Source of the DNA: a virus
Strand: one strand, 5' to 3'
Virus genome (UHGV): UHGV-1290421
DNA: 6,267 nt
Position numbers and translations under genes: made by a program. Shown here piece after piece: positions 1 through 6,267 of this stretch. Below the pieces are notes generated by a model that worked only from the letters and a program-made list of their open reading frames with translations, searched no databases and was not told the origin of the DNA. Each line of letters opens with the position of its first letter. Positions within the stretch are counted from its first letter, which is position 1.

Positions 1-75
1 TGACCCAATCAGTTAATATATATGAGGTTTGATATTAGTGTAGCTTATTAATCGTAATCTGTCAAGGAGGTATTC

Positions 76-324
76 ATGTTAAAGAAAATCGTGTTATGGT
101 TCTGTTGTTCTGTAATGTTTTTTTGGGCTTTTGTTTTTGGAGTGTTTCTTTGGTTAATATTTGCCGATACTGAACGTGCCCTTGCTACTATTCCTGTAGA
201 TAATTGGCTTGGTTGGTATGGCATTGGTCTTTGTTCTGGATTCTCTTTCCTTGCAGTTTGTTATGTTTTAATGGATGTGGTTATAGATAAAGTTTTTAAT
301 AAGTGTAAAAAGACCCAAAAATAA
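76..324 (+). CDS. Small integral membrane protein (82 aa, about 2 TM helices), function unknown.
   Basis: ATG at 76 is preceded by AAGGAGG (64-70) at 5 nt spacing. The protein is strongly hydrophobic (MLKKIVLWFCCSVMFFWAFVFGVFLWLIF...). A hairpin + T-run terminator lies 110 nt downstream (434-461). Its 3' end overlaps a minus-strand small ORF, so one of the two may be spurious. Confidence 0.45.
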   Translation: MLKKIVLWFCCSVMFFWAFVFGVFLWLIFADTERALATIPVDNWLGWYGIGLCSGFSFLAVCYVLMDVVIDKVFNKCKKTQK

Positions 325-417
325 GGTTATGACAAGGATGATTCCAAAAAGGCATAGAATTATGTGTGTCATATCCTGAGTTGCAAATGTAATGAATTTT
401 GTAATTAAGCTTATCAT
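268..417 (-). CDS. Small hydrophobic peptide (49 aa, single TM) downstream of the RHH gene on the minus strand.
   Basis: Internal ATG at 417..415 of the 268..543 ORF is preceded on the minus strand by GGAAGGAGA (RBS, spacing about 6). Product: MISLITKFITFATQDMTHIILCLFGIILVITLFLGLFTLIKNFIYNHIH. The annotated TTG-start extension 418..543 runs through the RHH gene and is rejected. Confidence 0.35.
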   Translation of the reverse strand: MISLITKFITFATQDMTHIILCLFGIILVITLFLGLFTLIKNFIYNHIH

Positions 418-433
418 GGTATTCTCCTTCCAG

Positions 434-461
434 CGGAGCAGCGCGTACTGCTCCGTTTTTT
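434..461 (+). terminator. Rho-independent terminator for + strand transcription. On the minus strand it forms a hairpin between the RHH gene and the small peptide ORF.
   Basis: Perfect 8-bp stem CGGAGCAG (434-441) / CTGCTCCG (448-455) with 6-nt loop CGCGTA, followed by TTTTTT (456-461). No T-run follows it on the minus strand. Confidence 0.55.
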
Positions 462-472
462 CATGAGTTTTT

Positions 473-679
473 TTAACCAGTCTTTGAGATAGATGATTTT
501 TCCAGCTTACTCTTCTGTTCTGTCCGGTTCTGCTGGGCTTCAAAATTTTTGATATAGTTTTCGATTATTATACTTCCCATTTGGCTTATGCTTCTTTTGT
601 CTTGTTCTGCTATATCCTTTAATTTTTGATAAATGTTTTCGTCTAATATAATTTGTACTTTGGGTTTTTTTGTTGGCAT
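473..679 (-). CDS. Ribbon-helix-helix (CopG/Arc/MetJ-like) transcriptional repressor, 68 aa.
   Basis: ATG at 679..677 with GAGGAGA RBS (684-690 on +) at 4 nt spacing. N-terminal beta-strand then two helices (KPKVQIILDENIYQKLKDIAEQDKRSISQMGSIIIENYIK) is typical of RHH DNA-binding domains. It is transcribed divergently from the structural operon. Confidence 0.7.
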   Translation of the reverse strand: MPTKKPKVQIILDENIYQKLKDIAEQDKRSISQMGSIIIENYIKNFEAQQNRTEQKSKLEKSSISKTG

Positions 680-693
680 AATTTCTCCTCAAA

Positions 694-765
694 AAAGGGA
701 TTGACGGTTAATCCCCTCATGTGATATACTGAGGGTATTCCAGGGGAGTAACCTTTAATCCCCGA
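694..765. promoter_or_regulatory. Two related inverted repeats (candidate operators for the RHH repressor) overlapping the -35 and lying just downstream of the -10.
   Basis: GGGA-N11-TCCCC (697-716, includes the -35) and GGGGA-N11-TCCCC (743-763). Both carry the right half-site TTAATCCCC (708-716 and 755-763), with centres about 47 bp apart. Confidence 0.35.
701..730 (+). promoter_or_regulatory. Sigma70-type promoter with extended -10, driving the gV/gVIII operon.
   Basis: TTGACG (701-706), 18-nt spacer, TGaTATACT (722-730; TATACT is 5/6 to consensus, with a TG extension). First + gene RBS lies at 1047. Confidence 0.5.
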
Positions 766-1059
766 ATGTCAAAGTGGTTGTTGTAGGTGCATTGGTAACC
801 TTCCGAAAATCTGAGTCATTCCGAATAGGTGTAGGGGTACAACTATTTTACCATGATTTCAGATTTTTGTACATACTGGCTGAGGAAACAGCTATCCGTG
901 TAAGTCGGTATATCTGTTCGGTGTTTAAGAAGTCTCCGGCCGTGCCATATCAGCGGTAAAGTGGTATGGATGTTCTGGACACAATTCCAGAGGGGAGATA
1001 TTTTCCTGTATCTCCTGTTAGATATTTGAATACTGGTTGAATGGTTAAGGAGGTATGTT

Positions 1060-1293
1060 ATGAAAGTACAGGGTGAATTTAAGTTTTTAGGTGTTGAAAA
1101 AAGGCAGGGTTTCAAGGACCCGTCCCAGACATTTTATGTCGCTGGCTTTGCCCAGGGATTGGATTCTCTTCGCTGCTATGTGGATGCGGAGGCATATGGC
1201 AGGTATTCCGGTATTGAACCTTATTCCGATGTAATGGCGGAATTAGAATATAACCCGGTATCGGGTAAGGTTGCACTTGTGGGCATTAACTAG
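1060..1293 (+). CDS. gV-like single-stranded DNA-binding protein (77 aa).
   Basis: ATG at 1060 with AAGGAGG (1047-1053) at 6 nt spacing. Size and position match Ff gV, immediately upstream of the coat gene. Recalled Ff gV motifs RQGKPYS...QLCYVDLGNEY correspond to RQGFKDPSQ...LRCYVDAEAY here. KVQGEFKF resembles the gV N-terminal beta-strand. Confidence 0.6.
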   Translation: MKVQGEFKFLGVEKRQGFKDPSQTFYVAGFAQGLDSLRCYVDAEAYGRYSGIEPYSDVMAELEYNPVSGKVALVGIN

Positions 1294-1308
1294 AAAGGAG
1301 GATTTAAG

Positions 1309-1599
1309 GTGAAGTTGTATCAGTCTTTGAAAAAGTATGGCACTCTCCCGGTCGCTACTGGTCTTATGGCAGTTTCATCTTTTCCGGCTTTGGCATCCGA
1401 AGCTGGGGCCACTGTCACATCCACGGACTGGGCGCCTATCATTTCAGCTATGACGGGTCAGATATCCGTGTCGACGGTAGTGGGTGTGATTGCTACAGCT
1501 ATCGGTGCCGGCATCGGCCTGGTGTTCATGTGGTGGGGCGGTCGCAAGGCAGTCCGTACACTTATGTCAGCATTCCGTAAAGGTAAGGTGTCCATGTAG
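1309..1599 (+). CDS. pVIII-like major coat protein precursor (96 aa; signal peptide of about 29 aa, mature about 67 aa).
   Basis: GTG start at 1309 with AAAGGAGG (1294-1301) at 7 nt spacing. Signal peptide ends in AxA (FPALA|SE). Mature protein has an acidic/polar N-terminus, a hydrophobic core (VVGVIATAIGAGIGLVFMWW) and a basic C-tail (RKAVRTLMSAFRKGK), the classic inovirus coat architecture. A strong terminator follows immediately. Confidence 0.7.
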   Translation: MKLYQSLKKYGTLPVATGLMAVSSFPALASEAGATVTSTDWAPIISAMTGQISVSTVVGVIATAIGAGIGLVFMWWGGRKAVRTLMSAFRKGKVSM

Positions 1600-1608
1600 C
1601 TCAGGGTT

Positions 1609-1637
1609 GGGGGTGGCGGTTGCCACTCCCTTTTTTT
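1609..1637 (+). terminator. Rho-independent terminator/attenuator after the major coat gene.
   Basis: Stem GGGGGTGGC (1609-1617) / GCCACTCCC (1622-1630) is 9 bp with one G.U pair and a GGTT loop, followed by TTTTTTT (1631-1637). This matches the Ff arrangement where a terminator follows gVIII. Confidence 0.75.
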
Positions 1638-1651
1638 ATTTGGAGGTTGTC

Positions 1652-2320
1652 ATGTCTTTTAAATGGTATATGGGTTCCCTGGACATTGGGAATGTGTTTA
1701 AGGTCTGGAAGTATAACAAGGAATTCCGTAAACAGCATCCTGAGTATTTTGACCCGGATGGGATTATCGTGTTCTGTGGGATGCAGGGTGCTGGTAAGAC
1801 AATCAGTGCTGTCCAGTATGTACAGAAACTTTGTGAACTGTATCCCCAGGTAAAGGTGTGCAGCAATATGGATTTGCGTCTCCCGGATGGCATTGAAGTA
1901 TATCCCTGGGACGGTGTTCATTGCTTCACGGATATTAATAATGGCTATGCTGGTGTGATTTATCTGATTGATGAGATACATCTGGAATTCAATTCCCTGG
2001 AATCGAAAAAGATGGACAGCAATATTTTTACGGTCGTCTCCCAGCAGCGTAAACAGCGGAAACATATTGTTGGCACGTCCCAGGTATTCAGCCGAATTGC
2101 GAAACCTTTCCGGGAGCAGTTTCGCTATGCGGTCGCCTGTCGCACGGTGCTGCGGTGCATTCAAGTCAATGCGTTGATTGACGCGAAAAATGCCCGGGAG
2201 GTTGACGGCGAGGTCGTTGCCAGCAGTATCAAACGGTTTTTTTGGTTCCACTCTCCTGCGCTTTATGATAGTTATGATACATATGCGGTGATGAATCGGT
2301 ATCGCCAGGATTGGGGGTGA
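1652..2320 (+). CDS. Zot/pI-like morphogenesis P-loop ATPase, cytoplasmic N-domain only (222 aa).
   Basis: The true start is probably ATG 1652 (GGAGG at 1642-1646, 5 nt spacing), not the annotated 1490 start, which would run through the terminator. Walker A is GMQGAGKTIS. Walker B is VIYLIDEIH. A downstream RKHIVGTSQ segment resembles the Zot-family motif. No TM segment is present, unlike canonical pI. Confidence 0.8.
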   Translation: MSFKWYMGSLDIGNVFKVWKYNKEFRKQHPEYFDPDGIIVFCGMQGAGKTISAVQYVQKLCELYPQVKVCSNMDLRLPDGIEVYPWDGVHCFTDINNGYAGVIYLIDEIHLEFNSLESKKMDSNIFTVVSQQRKQRKHIVGTSQVFSRIAKPFREQFRYAVACRTVLRCIQVNALIDAKNAREVDGEVVASSIKRFFWFHSPALYDSYDTYAVMNRYRQDWG

Positions 2321-2324
2321 TTGG

Positions 2325-2456
2325 ATGCAGGTTGCAATTGGATTATTTGCGGATGTGATTCGGGAAGCAATGCCCTATGCAATTGTGTTTGCTCTTGGCC
2401 AGCGGGTTGTTACATTGTTCCTTGGGATGGCCTTTAGAGGGGATGTACGCTTATGA
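2325..2456 (+). CDS. 43-aa hydrophobic membrane peptide, not in the supplied ORF track.
   Basis: ATG at 2325 with GGGGG (2313-2317) at 7 nt spacing. Product MQVAIGLFADVIREAMPYAIVFALGQRVVTLFLGMAFRGDVRL. Its TGA (2454-2456) overlaps the ATG (2453-2455) of the next gene in an ATGA arrangement, which suggests translational coupling. Confidence 0.45.
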   Translation: MQVAIGLFADVIREAMPYAIVFALGQRVVTLFLGMAFRGDVRL

Positions 2457-3265
2457 TGTGGAGGAGGATGTATTGTGTATTACTTTGTTTGGTTCTGTGT
2501 GCTTTATACTGTTTTCGGTCTTTTGCGGATGAGTATACGCTCACTGAGGAGGATTTTATGGCTCCTGAGGGATATCCTCAGGCTGAGACGAATGATGTAA
2601 ATGGGTGGCTTTCCAGTGTTCCTGATGAGGATATGGACTTTGATCAGTACCAGCAGATAATGGAAATCTTGTATCCTGAGCTGGCGGAGGAGGATGAGGA
2701 AGATGAGGATGATATGGCTGATATTGAGGACGATGATGACATGGAAGATATTCCTGTTGCTTCTGGTTCTAATGCTCGCGTTGCTAGTGCTTCTAATGCT
2801 GGGCGCACAAAAAAGGCCCAGACGGTAGCAAATATTCTGACTGTGAATTCTCCTGTGGTCTATAGCTCGTATACGCCTTATGATTCGTCTATTTCCACCA
2901 CAGTGATAACTTATATGTCGGATGTGCTTCCGAAGCTGGGAAATGTTCATTATGTGCTGTTCCGCCACGGACAGTATGCGTACCGTTTGGTTTATGCAAA
3001 GGATATGGTTTGTAATGGTACTACGTTCACGGCGGAGGATGCGCAATATATTGCCTATGATTCCCGGTATTATACTTGGTCAGCCGGCACGGAAGGTTCT
3101 TTTCGGCTCCAGGCGAATAATTACATCGTATACAGTGACCTTGCGGAATATCCGATGCTCCAGAGTGAGGGAACATATTACTGGCTGATTATCTTCATTG
3201 CCGGGGTAGCATTCCTTTTTGTGATATACCGCTCTCTGTTCAGTCCTGGCCGTGTACGGATATGA
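2453..3265 (+). CDS. Exported, C-terminally membrane-anchored protein with a poly-acidic tract (270 aa). Candidate minor virion or assembly protein.
   Basis: N-terminal hydrophobic signal/TM (YCVLLCLVLCALYCFRSFA|DEY), Asp/Glu-rich segment (EEDEEDEDDMADIEDDDDMED), Ala/Ser linker, Tyr/Ser/Thr-rich domain, then C-terminal TM plus short basic tail (YYWLIIFIAGVAFLFVIYRSLFSPGRVRI). The start could be 2453, 2456 or 2468. Confidence 0.6.
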   Translation: MMWRRMYCVLLCLVLCALYCFRSFADEYTLTEEDFMAPEGYPQAETNDVNGWLSSVPDEDMDFDQYQQIMEILYPELAEEDEEDEDDMADIEDDDDMEDIPVASGSNARVASASNAGRTKKAQTVANILTVNSPVVYSSYTPYDSSISTTVITYMSDVLPKLGNVHYVLFRHGQYAYRLVYAKDMVCNGTTFTAEDAQYIAYDSRYYTWSAGTEGSFRLQANNYIVYSDLAEYPMLQSEGTYYWLIIFIAGVAFLFVIYRSLFSPGRVRI

Positions 3266-3444
3266 TGGGACATCTTCATTTCCTTGTCCGCTGACAGTGC
3301 CAGGGGATTTATGGGTGCGAATCGTAATCGTTTTGTATATCTTCGTTTTGGATTTATGTAACACATTTTCGCCTGCAGGTGATTCCAGGCCAGGCCGGAG
3401 CCAGCTGTGTCGTGTGTTACAGATATGGTAAAGGAGGGTGTTAT

Positions 3445-3675
3445 ATGCAGGTGGATTTTAATAAGACTGAACTGCTCTATCTGGACATATTGGCAACGGA
3501 AAAATTGGATATTATAAAACACCGTCATGAACGGGATAAAAGAATCTTTGACACTTTGGATATTGATATTCATGAGCGTATTGTTTTATATGAATCCCAG
3601 ATTAAGGCATTCACTGATATACATAACAAGATAGTTTCTGCGGTTGGTTCCTTGAGTTTGGACCCTACTGTTTAG
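3445..3675 (+). CDS. Hypothetical soluble protein (76 aa from ATG 3445; the track's GTG 3379 extension is less likely).
   Basis: AAGGAGGG (3431-3438) lies 6 nt before ATG 3445. Product is charged, helical and has no TM (MQVDFNKTELLYLDILATEKLDIIKHRHERDKRIFDTLDIDIHERIVLYESQIKAF...). I do not recognise the family. Confidence 0.5.
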   Translation: MQVDFNKTELLYLDILATEKLDIIKHRHERDKRIFDTLDIDIHERIVLYESQIKAFTDIHNKIVSAVGSLSLDPTV

Positions 3676-3722
3676 TGCTTACTGATTACTAGACTTTCGC
3701 GAATAGTTGGAGGTATTACTCT

Positions 3723-5099
3723 ATGTCTGCTATTAAGCTGCGTAAAATTCTATCATTGTGTTTTTCTTTGGTTTTTGTTATTTTTTTTGTTATTTTATTT
3801 CCTTTGACTACTTTTGCAATGGTTGCTACTCCATCGGATGCGATTAAGGTTCCTGTTGCTACGTCTAGCAATGCATTGCTGTCCCAGGATTACATGGAAA
3901 CGGACGATTTTGACACATTGGATGTTATGCCCTTGTCTGATGGTGATTTACCTTATGTATCTAATACGGTTGATGTAACCGGGTGTTATTTATCGGTCGC
4001 TTATTATGATATGTCTGGTAAGCTTAAATTTACTCCTGCTAAATATTTTAATTCGGACCATTATGCTTCTATTGGAGTTCCGTCTGATTGTGCTTCGGTT
4101 TCCCACTTTGTTTTTTCAATTGAAAAATCAGCCCTTCCTTCATCCGGTGTATATTCTCTTTCGGCTCATTTTGCATCCAATACGGGGGTTGAATATAAAT
4201 TGGTTCGGATATATTCATCAAAGAATAATTCGAATGTTTCTACTCAAGAAAGCAGTTTGGATTTATCTTTTACTCAGTCAAGTGGGGATTGGTATTGTAC
4301 AACGGTTGTTGATGTTGGCACGGTTAGTAATATTCAGCTTTGGTTGATTCCTAAATCGACCTCAACCATTAATCTCCCGTATGGTGGTTTTTTGGATATT
4401 AACTTTACTAAGACATCCGCAACTCCTAATTATACGGCTGCTGGTGGCTCTCAGACTACAGGTGATATACAGAGTAATATTGCGGATAATACGGCCCAGC
4501 AGGTTGAACAAGGAGACACAATCATTGAACTAATTAAAAATACGATTCAGACCATTTCTTTCCAACTCACATCCTTCTGGAATCAGCTTGCTGGAGAATT
4601 TACAAATCTGTATAACAAAATGAATACCCAGCATGCCGAACAATTGGAAGCTGATCGTATGAACACGGATAACATTATAGCTGCTGATGATGCCAATACT
4701 AATAAGGTCACTACTGCCATTGAGTCCCATGGAAATTTTATCATTGAGGGTTTGAAGAAACTTTTCATTCCCTCGGATGAATATTTTAAGGCTTATTTTG
4801 ATGACCTCTATAGTTGGTTCAGTGAAAGGTTTGGGTTTCTCTCCTTCCCTATTGATTTACTATTAGAGGTCATTGATATTTTTGTTAATTCATCCCAGAC
4901 AGACTGTGTGTTGGTACTCCCCTCTTTCACTATCATGGAAAATCTGCTCTGGCCTGAGATGTCCTTTAATCTAACTGAATTTTTAAATACAAATTTTTCT
5001 TTTGTCGTTGTTGCGATTAAGACTGTAACAAGTATCTATTTGGTAATGGCATTTGTGCAGTTATGTGAGGAAAAATGGAATGAGGTGATGATGAATTGA
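3723..5099 (+). CDS. pIII-like minor coat / adsorption protein candidate (458 aa).
   Basis: ATG 3723 with GGAGG (3709-3713). N-terminal signal peptide/TM (MSAIKLRKILSLCFSLVFVIFFVILFPLTTFAMVA), Ser/Thr/Asn-rich exposed domains and a central predicted helical region. C-terminal TM anchor plus short tail (FSFVVVAIKTVTSIYLVMAFVQLCEEKWNEVMMN) matches the pIII topology. It is the largest ORF in the structural module. Confidence 0.6.
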   Translation: MSAIKLRKILSLCFSLVFVIFFVILFPLTTFAMVATPSDAIKVPVATSSNALLSQDYMETDDFDTLDVMPLSDGDLPYVSNTVDVTGCYLSVAYYDMSGKLKFTPAKYFNSDHYASIGVPSDCASVSHFVFSIEKSALPSSGVYSLSAHFASNTGVEYKLVRIYSSKNNSNVSTQESSLDLSFTQSSGDWYCTTVVDVGTVSNIQLWLIPKSTSTINLPYGGFLDINFTKTSATPNYTAAGGSQTTGDIQSNIADNTAQQVEQGDTIIELIKNTIQTISFQLTSFWNQLAGEFTNLYNKMNTQHAEQLEADRMNTDNIIAADDANTNKVTTAIESHGNFIIEGLKKLFIPSDEYFKAYFDDLYSWFSERFGFLSFPIDLLLEVIDIFVNSSQTDCVLVLPSFTIMENLLWPEMSFNLTEFLNTNFSFVVVAIKTVTSIYLVMAFVQLCEEKWNEVMMN

Positions 5100-5368
5100 T
5101 TTTGGAAAGTGTGTTTAACCTCTTTTCTTCTGCCTTGAAACTGATATTTGGATGGATTAATCTTCCAGAGTTGCCGGCAGAGATCCAAACGGTAGTGGAT
5201 TCACTCTTTCAATACATGCGTGCTGGTCTTGGATTTGTATTCCTGTTTTTTAACATGGACCTGGTTAAAATTATGTTGCCGTTCGTGATTGTGGTGGCGA
5301 ATTTTGAGAAGGTTTATAAGATTGTTATGTATGTGTTGCGGAAGATTCCTTTCCTGGGTATTGAGTGA
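5096..5368 (+). CDS. pVI-like small hydrophobic virion/membrane protein candidate (90 aa).
   Basis: TTG start at 5096 overlaps the TGA (5097-5099) of the upstream gene, which suggests coupling. GAGGTGA lies 7 nt upstream. The product has 2-3 predicted TM segments (GLGFVFLFFNMDLVKIMLPFVIVVANF). It sits where pVI sits in Ff, next to pIII. Confidence 0.5.
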   Translation: MILESVFNLFSSALKLIFGWINLPELPAEIQTVVDSLFQYMRAGLGFVFLFFNMDLVKIMLPFVIVVANFEKVYKIVMYVLRKIPFLGIE

Positions 5369-5377
5369 ATGGTTGGC

Positions 5378-5419
5378 ATGGCTGCCGGAACCGCACCAGC
5401 GGTGCGGTCCGGTAGCCAT
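5378..5419 (+). other. GC-rich imperfect hairpin in the rep-proximal intergenic region. Candidate replication origin or packaging-signal element.
   Basis: Left arm ATGGCTGCCGGAACCGCACC (5378-5397), loop AGC, right arm GGTGCGGTCCGGTAGCCAT (5401-5419). That gives about 19 bp with one wobble and one bulged A. No T-run follows, so it is not a canonical terminator. It lies 50 nt upstream of the Rep RBS in an otherwise AT-rich spacer. Confidence 0.4.
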
Positions 5420-5471
5420 TACTTGACAGTATAAACACTTAACACTCATTTTTATAAAAACAGGGGGAAAT

Positions 5472-6267
5472 ATGGAACCGTATAATGTCAAGATAATCAC
5501 TTATCCTGACCTTACAAAACAGTATCGTATTTATCATAATACGATTGGTACGGATGATTTAAGTATTCCTGTACGGCCTCATAAGAAGGGGGAACGGAAT
5601 CCATTTGACGGTAAGGTTTGTAAGGAAATATTGGTTGATATAAAGGATTATAAAAATCATGTGGATGATGTAAGTATAAAAAGAACAAAGAAAAAGGTCT
5701 ATGATTATGCCAAATCAAATGAATGGGAATGGTTTGTCACTTTTACTTTCAGTCCTGATAAAGTGAATCGTTATGATTATGATGAATGTACAAAGTATCT
5801 TAGTAAATGGTTTAATAATCTAAAACGTTCCTCTCCTGCTCTCTCCTATCTGGTTGTTCCTGAACAACATAAGGATGGCGCATATCATTTTCATGGATTA
5901 TTTAGTGGGATGAATGAACGTCAGATAGTATGGACTGGTAAGTATGTTATAAAGCGTGTCCGTGGGCTTAGAAGTAAGTTTGTTCGTACGAAAGAAAAGA
6001 TATATAAGATAGGCAGTTATAAGTTGGGTTGGATGACGGCTACAAGGGTTCGTGAGATGGAAAAGGTCACGTCCTACATAACAAAGTACATCACGAAAGA
6101 TATGTTGAACGGTCTGCATGGTAGAAAACGTTATTGGTGTTCCAGGAATTTGGTTTTGCCTTTGGAAGAGGTTTTTATCCTGGATGCCACAGACCGGTTC
6201 ATTCTGTCCCAGGAACTGGATGACAGTTCAAGGTTCAAGAAGGTTTCGCAAGTGTGTTATGGGGACA
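5472..6267 (+). CDS. Rolling-circle replication initiator (HUH endonuclease, superfamily I two-tyrosine type, as in phiX174 gpA / Microviridae VP4). 3' partial, 265 codons in the window.
   Basis: ATG 5472 with GGGGGAAA RBS. Motif I is FVTFTF. Motif II is YHFHGLF (HxH). Motif III is YITKYITK (Y-x-x-K-Y-x-x-K). The ORF is open to the window end and is absent from the supplied track because no stop was reached. Confidence 0.85.
   Translation, partial: MEPYNVKIITYPDLTKQYRIYHNTIGTDDLSIPVRPHKKGERNPFDGKVCKEILVDIKDYKNHVDDVSIKRTKKKVYDYAKSNEWEWFVTFTFSPDKVNRYDYDECTKYLSKWFNNLKRSSPALSYLVVPEQHKDGAYHFHGLFSGMNERQIVWTGKYVIKRVRGLRSKFVRTKEKIYKIGSYKLGWMTATRVREMEKVTSYITKYITKDMLNGLHGRKRYWCSRNLVLPLEEVFILDATDRFILSQELDDSSRFKKVSQVCYGD

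Follow-up and report, generated by a model that had tools for sequence, protein, structure and literature searches.

Results

Extent and gene content of the phage genome

The stretch analysed here, the virus genome UHGV-1290421 (6,267 nucleotides; called the window, whose positions are used throughout), is the whole circular genome of a small filamentous phage, or inovirus, in its excised and circularly permuted form, and this phage is temperate, being integrated at one specific 34-bp site of its host. The gene for Rep, the rolling-circle initiator, runs on the + strand up to the last nucleotide of the window (5472..6267, residues 1-265), and reading through from the 3' end into the 5' end adds its last 10 codons and the stop (1..32, +), giving a protein of 275 aa, the same length as that given by gene callers in integrated copies, and Rep is not cut off at the window end. 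In the integrated copies L004, L005 and L203 (related loci are designated by L numbers), nucleotide 6267 directly adjoins nucleotide 1, and the prophage of L203-L207 shows only six mismatches with the entire window (99.9% identity), the window ends being joined without a break. A contig from IMG/VR with ~95% identity across the aligned parts contains an intact junction of the phage attachment site, attP, and a 99-nt terminal repeat, for which reason it is circular. The closure of Rep, the end-to-start contiguity in the integrated copies and this circular contig indicate that the window is the excised form and not a fragment of a larger element.

Eleven credible genes were found, ten of them on the + strand and one, a repressor, on the - strand. 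The order on the + strand is orf82, a 77-aa single-stranded DNA (ssDNA)-binding candidate, coat, Zot-type ATPase, 43-aa, 270-aa, 76-aa, 458-aa and 90-aa genes, then Rep. An earlier note, made on this DNA from its letters, had called the stretch an inovirus on such a set and order of genes, and this was borne out, every feature lying where it had been placed, including an intrinsic terminator or attenuator after the coat gene (1609..1630, +; a 9-pair GC-rich stem followed by TTTTTTT). It had also ascribed strong AAGGAGG Shine-Dalgarno sites to nearly all + strand genes: a Shine-Dalgarno site is indeed present at each credible gene, but the full AAGGAGG stands only at orf82, the 77-aa gene and the coat gene, the others being GGAGG-like. 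The reported lack of a secretin and of an integrase held in Pfam and PHROG searches of the open reading frames (ORFs): no ORF matched the secretin (pIV) family, the sole ORF above 300 aa being that of the 458-aa protein, and no window ORF matched an integrase or recombinase family. The absence of an integrase had been read merely as a clue to the host, whereas the phage is in fact temperate. No tRNA was found in a scan of the window, and a tRNA as integration target was thus rejected; an Rfam search of the whole window, with E up to 1, gave no match. A plasmid or tailed-phage context was rejected as well, the integrated copies being flanked by ordinary chromosomal genes and no terminase or capsid gene being present.

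Host range and known relatives

Near-identical prophages were found in the chromosomes of Enterocloster aldenensis and Lacrimispora, co-linear with the window at ~90% and ~75% DNA identity, respectively, which confirmed the Gram-positive host that had been proposed, namely Enterocloster and relatives (Lachnospiraceae). A scan with a Zot profile, using one genome per species, returned matches of 99% identity in E. aldenensis, 94% in a Lacrimispora isolate and 57% in E. citroniae, together with many metagenome-assembled genomes (MAGs) of Clostridia and Bacilli at 38-58% identity. Relatives were also seen in MAGs labelled Paludibacteraceae, Melainabacteria, Tenericutes and Neobacillus (L011, L063, L037, L068, L080); L011 carries a Lachnospiraceae-type site, a XerS-like gene and a prophage, so that this bin label at least looks wrong.

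Burckhardt et al. 2023 (Microbiome 11:65, PMC10061712) described inovirus prophages with direct repeats at their flanks in E. bolteae, E. clostridioformis, E. citroniae, E. aldenensis and Hungatella, with DNase-protected phage DNA in culture supernatants and filaments imaged for two strains. We compared the window with the protein sequences of the E. citroniae WAL-17108 phage (Table S5 of PMC10061712), for which DNase-protected extracellular pI DNA was reported. The identities were 98.2% for Zot, 97.8% for the 90-aa protein, 97.7% for the 43-aa protein, 97.6% for orf82, 97.4% for the 77-aa protein, 96.8% for the coat and 95.2% for Rep, and the host genus and the direct-repeat flanks are also in common. 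The 458-aa protein, in contrast, is just 62% identical because of its variable N-terminal domain, and the WAL-17108 gene list has another small gene in place of the repressor of the window. That list further counts a 350-aa 'integrase' as a phage gene, whereas here the gene adjoins phage-free sites, and the paper mentions neither dif nor Xer. Judged by these protein identities, the window is the same phage type as the WAL-17108 inovirus and nearly a re-isolate of it. The phage is not new, and the novelty once proposed for it fell with the seven proteins at 95-98% identity and with copies 99.9% identical in public metagenome contigs.

Among more distant relatives, Zot is 48-57% identical (tblastn) to genes annotated Zot or ATPase in GenBank inoviruses, and is in the same range for the porcine 'Inovirus sp.' MT135285-MT135314 and the 'bajarodino viruses' PQ006102-PQ006175, which share the gut origin; DNA similarity to the metagenomic inoviruses of GenBank is limited to the coat-Zot region. 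Bajarodino viruses 41 and 35 have the order of the window (Zot, small protein(s), large protein, ~95-aa protein, Rep). The gene order had been considered unusual and pI does directly follow the coat gene, unlike in the Ff phages (M13, fd, f1), but this order is the norm within the clade, occurring in the GenBank relatives and in other Enterocloster lineages. The 34-bp site was not found in the GenBank relatives L001-L003, and a literature search on 'bajarodino' found nothing.

The phage is integrated at a 34-bp host site

The host site reads AACTATTCGTTAA-ACTAGACT-TTCGCGAATAGTT at the left junction always, despite the differing host DNA that surrounds it between species, and can be written as the pattern AACTATTCGNNAAACTNNNNTTTNNCGAATAGTT. 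The attP of the window (3675..3708) is composed of the degenerate arm GTGCTTACTGATT (3675-3687), the centre ACTAGACT (3688-3695) and the intact arm TTCGCGAATAGTT (3696-3708), so that the left-arm position is occupied by unrelated sequence while the centre and the right arm are retained. The resulting 21-bp core (3688-3708, ACTAGACTTTCGCGAATAGTT), first seen by comparison with a 30.8-kb contig, has a copy at each prophage end; it is duplicated likewise in E. aldenensis, Lacrimispora, L087 and L203, with the prophage ends 5.9-6.5 kb apart. The four sites attB, attP, attL and attR (host, phage, left and right) align exactly, and the junctions are exact and reciprocal in every copy. The search for dif-like sites that the earlier note had suggested was productive, and the identity of the phage, its host and its integration site are secure.

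A scan of metagenomes for the 34-mer, with the four central bases left free, gave at least 119 loci. Among the matches listed, empty sites corresponding to the occupied ones were present: L161 matches both flanks of L004 at 99%, L126, L085, L118 and L156 match the flanks of the E. aldenensis locus, and L095 matches both flanks of L203 at at least 99.95%, being the same host with both of its phages absent.

We examined the folding of attP as single-stranded DNA against shuffled sequences and obtained z = +0.78, with no hairpin. A folded single-stranded attP in the manner of CTXphi was rejected on this value and on the lack of a complementary core copy in the genome. As attP is unfolded in single-stranded form, a double-stranded substrate, such as VGJphi and TLCphi use, is more likely than a hairpin of the CTXphi type. 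Phages with a complete two-arm site (L007, L009-L011) were considered too and rejected, these sites being attL junctions beside the host recombinase gene.

With its right arm, attP reaches to one base before the ribosome site that serves the 458-aa gene, and its left edge overlaps the stop codon of the 76-aa gene. Integration thus splits the long operon between these two genes, so that the 458-aa, 90-aa and Rep genes are separated from the phage promoter and preceded by host DNA; that this split helps to silence the prophage is a speculation. The att centre ACTAGAC (3688-3694) differs by one base from the motif ACTTGAC of the replication origin (5421-5427), a likeness that is probably due to chance since this kind of site is also used by phages whose Rep is unrelated. 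Two loci show additional copies of att sequences. In L006 (Lacrimispora), ~55 bp of the same sequence follow both core copies (6068-6125 and 11953-12010) and may have been left by an earlier insertion or by a tandem copy. L209, an IMG/VR prophage region from an isolate genome, contains an attP-like junction (degenerate arm, core, GGAGG) inside it, besides a full attL, which suggests two phages in tandem on one side of the site.

The host site resembles dif and is linked to a XerS-like recombinase gene

The 34-bp site has the core layout of tyrosine-recombinase targets, with an 8-bp centre between two inverted arms of 13 bp that agree at 11 of 13 positions. It is conserved across genomes of Enterocloster, Lacrimispora, Roseburia and Clostridium sp. 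and across MAGs, and it is mainly the centre that varies. The metagenome loci were chosen for exact arms, so that variation can be assessed there at the four free centre positions; the centres among the matches listed include ACTAGACT, ACTATTCT, ACTTGTGT and others. Loci found via Zot and not via the site likewise have conserved arms and a variable centre. The phage-free loci among the matches listed hold one full site each, with no partner half-site.

In all 15 of the phage-free loci listed, the GC skew to the left of the site exceeds that to its right (mean +0.083 versus -0.034; seven independent groups), each locus having at least 2.5 kb on each side and being oriented by the small asymmetry of the site. 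The same polarity holds around the prophages in L004, L005 and L006; the skew of a single 20-kb locus such as L005 is ambiguous alone and becomes informative only across many loci. On a 6.37-Mb contig of E. aldenensis, the site is found at 3.17 Mb (49.8%).

A gene for a 350-aa tyrosine recombinase is present in 45 of the 130 site-bearing loci listed, phage-free ones included. Of the 46 matches listed, 41 lie between 29 bp and 3.4 kb from the site and the five others at 6.2-9.3 kb, with phage genes intervening in four of these five, and transcription of the gene is always directed away from the site among the matches listed. In L010, L006, L171, L146, L104, L194, L094 and L115 the site is 29-135 bp from the gene start. 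Because this gene stands beside phage-free sites, the 350-aa 'integrase' of the 2023 paper is a host gene. Among NCBIfam models the protein scores best with XerS (213 bits), followed by XerC (179), XerA (172) and XerD (166), and its best solved relative is XerD. The recombinase gene was seen on the opposite side of the site in L146, L150, L136, L008, L097, L184, L194, L104 and L110; the flanks were usable in two of these, L146 and L150, where the skew polarity relative to the site orientation is unchanged despite the switched side. The orientation of the site hence seems tied to the replication arms and not to the recombinase gene. From the skew polarity, the mid-contig position and the linked Xer-family gene, we infer, with good support, that the 34-bp site is probably a dif-like dimer-resolution site.

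Several phage lineages occupy the same site

A second lineage, found in E. citroniae DSM 19261 and in L007, L010 and L011, carries attP immediately upstream of its coat gene. Its Rep belongs to Rep_trans (PF02486, 5e-58) and is unrelated to that of the window, and yet the same kind of site is used. A third lineage, of ~7.7 kb, occupies the other side of the site in reverse orientation and is bounded by a copy of the left arm and centre, as observed 6.3-7.8 kb to the left of the full site in L192, L125 and L008; the attP of this lineage seems to keep the other arm of the site. The opposite-side lineage was also seen in L120, L134, L167, L189 and L197, and its gene ~30% identical to the 458-aa gene begins ~106 bp away from the site. 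That phages with unrelated initiators share one site speaks for an enzyme of the host and against insertion by Rep.

Both sides are filled in L203 (1-16400; also in L204-L208), where the array consists of the XerS-like gene, msrAB, a left-hand phage, the site, the window phage, the crippled site and dnaJ. The left-hand phage is a 7.76-kb inovirus on the - strand, with a 261-aa protein weakly matching Zot and a 398-aa gene product resembling the 458-aa protein. A 16-kb 'inovirus' was listed in E. aldenensis AM40-2AC (main text and Table S2 of PMC10061712), and by analogy with the array it may be two or more phages stacked at the site.

Replication proteins and origin

Rep matches PF23343 (REP_ORF2-G2P) at 51.8 bits, above the cut-off of 27.8, and phrog_3419 at 2e-22. 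The HUH motif YHFHGLF (5883-5903) and the double-tyrosine motif YITKYITK (6075-6098) are present and, with the family model above its cut-off, identify Rep as an initiator of the phiX174-A/G2P HUH type. The Rep of the E. citroniae phage, 95% identical, matched the A protein of phage G4 in HHpred at 99.85% (PMC10061712).

The probable plus-strand origin (5378..5442, +), between the 90-aa gene and Rep, consists of a GC-rich hairpin (5378-5419) followed by the invariant block ATTACTTGACAGTATAAACACTTAA. The hairpin folds as ssDNA with z = -6.1, and seven of its stem pairs are preserved via two-sided changes in the window, L005, L006 and L191. The 27-nt invariant block on its 3' side contains TACTTGACAGTA, which by itself forms a four-pair mini-hairpin, TACT-TGAC-AGTA (5420-5431). 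The 12-mer TACTTGAYAGTA is found also in eight loci with diverged relatives (L002, L018, L027, L040, L051, L062, L074, L076); its placement relative to Rep was compared in three of them, being immediately upstream of a Rep 26-29% identical to that of the window in L074 and L076, and ~100 nt downstream of Rep in L002. The nick would be placed at the TACTTGACAGTA element, which resembles the CTTG/ATA nick sites of phiX174 and pC194, a likeness in agreement with the G4 A-protein match of Rep.

The 77-aa protein (1060..1293, +) is a probable ssDNA-binding protein. Its homologues (n=24) are exclusively from Enterocloster or Lacrimispora, and its predicted structure is an OB fold (mean predicted confidence, pLDDT, 93.7) whose structural neighbours include single-strand-binding proteins. 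It has no sequence match to the gene V family (Phage_DNA_bind) or to any other Pfam or PHROG family, and on the modelled fold it probably does the job of gene V.

Coat, assembly ATPase and membrane proteins

The major coat precursor (96 aa, 1309..1599, +) matches phrog_2186 'virion structural protein' at 5.6e-8 and has the layout of the pVIII type, with a signal peptide, an acidic N-terminus, a hydrophobic core (1477-1539) and a basic C-terminus (1540-1596). The E. citroniae coat, 97% identical, matched IKe G8P in HHpred at 95.5% (PMC10061712). We observed also a weak match of the coat protein to the TrbC/VirB2 conjugative pilin family PF04956 (E 6e-4, under the cut-off), which probably reflects the common layout of small membrane proteins.

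The pI/Zot-type assembly ATPase (222 aa, 1652..2320, +) has a Walker A (1778-1801) and a Walker B motif (1955-1981), both invariant, and is without a membrane segment. It scores 20.0 bits with PF05707, just under the cut-off of 20.3, and 12 of 13 homologues match this family, the best at 9.9e-6; the E. citroniae Zot matched Pf3 ORF301 in HHpred at 99.8% (PMC10061712). Sequence searches of the PDB with the Zot profile and the coat protein gave nothing meaningful. The next gene codes for a 43-aa single-pass membrane protein (2325..2456, +; membrane segment at residues 19-37) that adjoins Zot across lineages in L006-L011 with 60-95% identity, and which could possibly be the membrane partner of the ATPase, in the role of the pI C-terminal domain or of pXI.

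The window shares with the Ff phages the succession of Rep, ssDNA-binding protein and coat, followed later by the adsorption protein and the pVI-like protein, as well as a pI-type ATPase and an intergenic hairpin origin. It differs from them in that pI comes directly after the coat gene and not after pVI, in the lack of a pVII/pIX pair (the gap between the ssDNA-binding protein and coat genes is 15 nt) and of a pIV secretin, in an ATPase without its own membrane segment, in 77-aa and 458-aa proteins without sequence match to gV and gIII, and in being temperate.

Adsorption, minor and accessory proteins

The 458-aa protein (3723..5099, +) consists of a signal/anchor helix, a confidently modelled beta-sandwich domain and a helical C-terminal half with membrane segments. 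Between phages otherwise ~95% identical, the identity is only 23-45% over residues 76-250 but mostly 85-100% over the C-terminal 200 residues, a pattern expected of a receptor-binding protein. No Pfam or PHROG family matched it, gIII included, and a fold search with the model, whose helical C-terminal half has low confidence, gave no pIII-like match. On topology and on this pattern of variability it is a probable adsorption protein, analogous to pIII. The hydrophobic 90-aa protein (5096..5368, +), which has a membrane segment, is encoded beside it in all lineages compared and would be pVI-like by analogy only; its E. citroniae homologue, 98% identical, matched phiLf G6P in HHpred at 93% (PMC10061712).

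The 270-aa protein (2453..3265, +; pI 4.1) is an exported protein by its topology, with a signal peptide, a highly acidic region and a C-terminal membrane anchor. Homologues in other lineages are 36-63% identical, no Pfam or PHROG family matched, and by analogy only it may be a minor virion or assembly protein. Its linker contains a 24-nt tandem duplication (2756-2800), giving VASGSNAR / VASASNAG. The 76-aa soluble protein (3445..3675, +), whose ORF has AAAGGAGGG and whose 3' end lies exactly at attP, is retained among window-type phages, and a role in recombination is a speculation.

At the other end of the operon, orf82 (82 aa, 76..324, +) has an AAGGAGG site and two membrane segments. It is 97.6% identical to gene 26 (93 aa) of the E. 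citroniae inovirus, the window copy ending at a TAA at codon 83. A 49-aa hydrophobic ORF with a GGAGAA site runs antisense to the end of orf82 (268..417, -), has no family match and is doubtful as a gene. Positions 49-413, with orf82 and this ORF, are an accessory, swappable module replaced by a 148-aa ORF in L004 and by unrelated DNA in L005.

Regulatory region and leader

The divergent repressor (68 aa, 473..679, -) is of the Arc/CopG ribbon-helix-helix type (phrog_228 'Arc-like repressor', 5e-5); its match to Pfam RHH_5 is below the cut-off, and PF03869 (Arc) is on record for the identical 68-aa product in L004. A promoter scan gave a rightward promoter at 701-730 (+; TTGACG and TG-TATACT, spaced by 18 nt). 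Two direct repeats GGGAkT-N7-AATCCC (697-722 and 744-769) overlap the promoter region and are likely the operators of the repressor. A hairpin with a 10-pair stem and a T run (432..457, +) is terminator-like and would end the long rightward transcript. The leader of 329 nt between the promoter and the first gene (731..1059, +) is mildly structured as ssDNA (z = -2.2), lacks ORFs with a ribosome site, gave no match in Rfam and is a candidate for the minus-strand origin or the packaging signal.

Discussion

We consider, with a probability of roughly 0.75, that the window is the excised circular form of a temperate inovirus of Enterocloster-group Lachnospiraceae whose lysogeny proceeds via a Xer-like recombinase of the host, and the phage would most likely be an element hijacking the Xer system of its Gram-positive host. 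In the proposed cycle, Rep would nick the TACTTGACAGTA element beside the hairpin 5378-5419 and start rolling-circle replication, the progeny single strands would be coated by the OB-fold protein, and the Zot ATPase, possibly with the 43-aa membrane protein, would extrude the coat-wrapped DNA across the single membrane of the host, which makes a secretin unnecessary. The 458-aa protein would bind the receptor via its hypervariable beta-sandwich domain. For lysogeny, the ribbon-helix-helix repressor would act at the two palindromic operators over the rightward promoter. The attP would retain the centre and one arm of a host dif-like site, as in the Vibrio phages that exploit Xer, and the XerS-like tyrosine recombinase, encoded beside the site, would recombine the double-stranded phage DNA with it, giving a complete site at one prophage end and a crippled one at the other and cutting the phage operon between the 76-aa and 458-aa genes.

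Some observations weigh against this proposal. The second arm of attP is essentially absent, with 2 of 13 matches to the consensus. The GC-skew evidence is drawn from flanks of 2.5-6 kb only, and the 49.8% in E. aldenensis is a contig coordinate, the contig start possibly not being the replication origin. The 213 bits of the recombinase are under the NCBI XerS equivalog cut-off of 267, and near L004 and L161, where the host is close to that of the window, no recombinase gene lies within 5.5 kb of the site.

The shortfall against the XerS cut-off also bears on another explanation, in which the 34-bp site and the 350-aa recombinase are not dif and its enzyme but the att/int pair of a resident integrative module, the phage still borrowing the recombinase. 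Integrated mobile elements, too, have a recombinase gene next to the target of that recombinase, the distance between gene and site varies here from 29 bp to several kb on either side, and the xerS module itself was likened to an integration module by Le Bourgeois et al. 2007 (PMC1914069). We regard this origin as unlikely: phage-free loci have one full site each without a partner half-site, and ordinary host genes lie on both flanks; the site orientation follows the GC-skew polarity even with the recombinase gene on the other side; the site is mid-contig in the 6.37-Mb E. aldenensis assembly; and little but the centre varies across the genera that carry it.

It is still less probable that integration is carried out by the Rep endonuclease of the phage or by general homologous recombination instead of a host tyrosine recombinase. 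Pfam and PHROG searches found no other DNA-breaking enzyme in the phage, and the att centre is one base off the origin motif, but phages with the unrelated Rep_trans initiator share the kind of site, the arm-centre-arm layout is that of a tyrosine-recombinase target and the junctions are exact and reciprocal in every copy. As to homologous recombination, an identity of 21 bp is too short for efficient RecA recombination. We give hardly any weight to the idea that the element is a defective prophage remnant, a satellite or a rolling-circle plasmid instead of a particle-making phage. The phage is known here from its sequence and not from virions, and several gene products are without a recognisable family; against this, all modules are intact and co-linear in many near-identical copies, the coat, Zot and minor-protein genes are conserved, the excised circular form was assembled independently as the IMG/VR contig, and DNase-protected extracellular DNA was reported for the near-identical E. 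citroniae phage (PMC10061712).

The proposed integration through a host Xer-like recombinase likens the window phage to CTXphi, VGJphi and TLCphi of Vibrio cholerae, which are integrase-less filamentous phages inserting at the host dimer-resolution site. As in TLCphi, attP is made of the centre and one arm of the site with the other arm degenerate, and, as for the Vibrio phages, several elements are arrayed at the site. The differences are the Gram-positive host, a 34-bp site unlike the 28-bp dif of XerCD, a single, linked XerS-like recombinase, insertion on both sides of the site, a putative dependence on the recombinase and, with regard to CTXphi, the lack of a single-stranded hairpin in attP.

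The host module is closest to XerS/difSL of streptococci and lactococci (Le Bourgeois et al. 2007, PMC1914069), which was defined by a ~350-aa recombinase beside an atypical dif where the skew switches. Both have a ~350-aa recombinase gene beside an atypical site at a GC-skew switch, and imperfect inverted arms in the site. The window host, however, belongs to Lachnospiraceae and not to Streptococcaceae, the site is of 34 bp versus 31 bp and of another sequence, the spacing between gene and site is variable, and the module is so far an object of sequence comparison. We found no literature linking dif or Xer to Clostridia, Lachnospiraceae or Enterocloster, in a search of partial coverage where absence is not proof of novelty; there were no Lachnospiraceae among the names searched in the dif predictions of Kono et al. 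2011, and Roux et al. 2019 do not mention Xer.

As a phage, the window is one more isolate from a described group of inoviruses of gut commensals, to which the present work adds the exact genome ends, the complete set of attB, attP, attL and attR and a mechanistic account of lysogeny without an integrase; the mode of integration may be a new variation on a known strategy. More broadly, and at somewhat less than even odds, we propose that Lachnospiraceae (Enterocloster, Lacrimispora and kin) resolve dimers by a single XerS-like recombinase acting on a 34-bp dif, and that this system is hijacked by several unrelated lineages of integrase-less inoviruses, inserted on either side and arrayed. If this is true, these phages would be the first described as exploiting Xer in a Gram-positive host, and the first for a Xer system with a single recombinase, XerS-type modules would extend beyond Streptococcaceae, and the 'integrase' listed for the published E. 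citroniae inovirus would be a host gene. Should the site and its recombinase be dif- and XerS-like, a likely dimer-resolution site would be named for a major family of gut bacteria, the piling up of several filamentous phages at one locus would be explained, and prophage borders that now include the host recombinase gene would be corrected. Plasmid integration via difSL was shown in Lactococcus (PMC1914069). In the same manner, a non-replicating plasmid carrying the 34-bp site might integrate, and could provide a genetic tool for Lachnospiraceae, which are hard to engineer.

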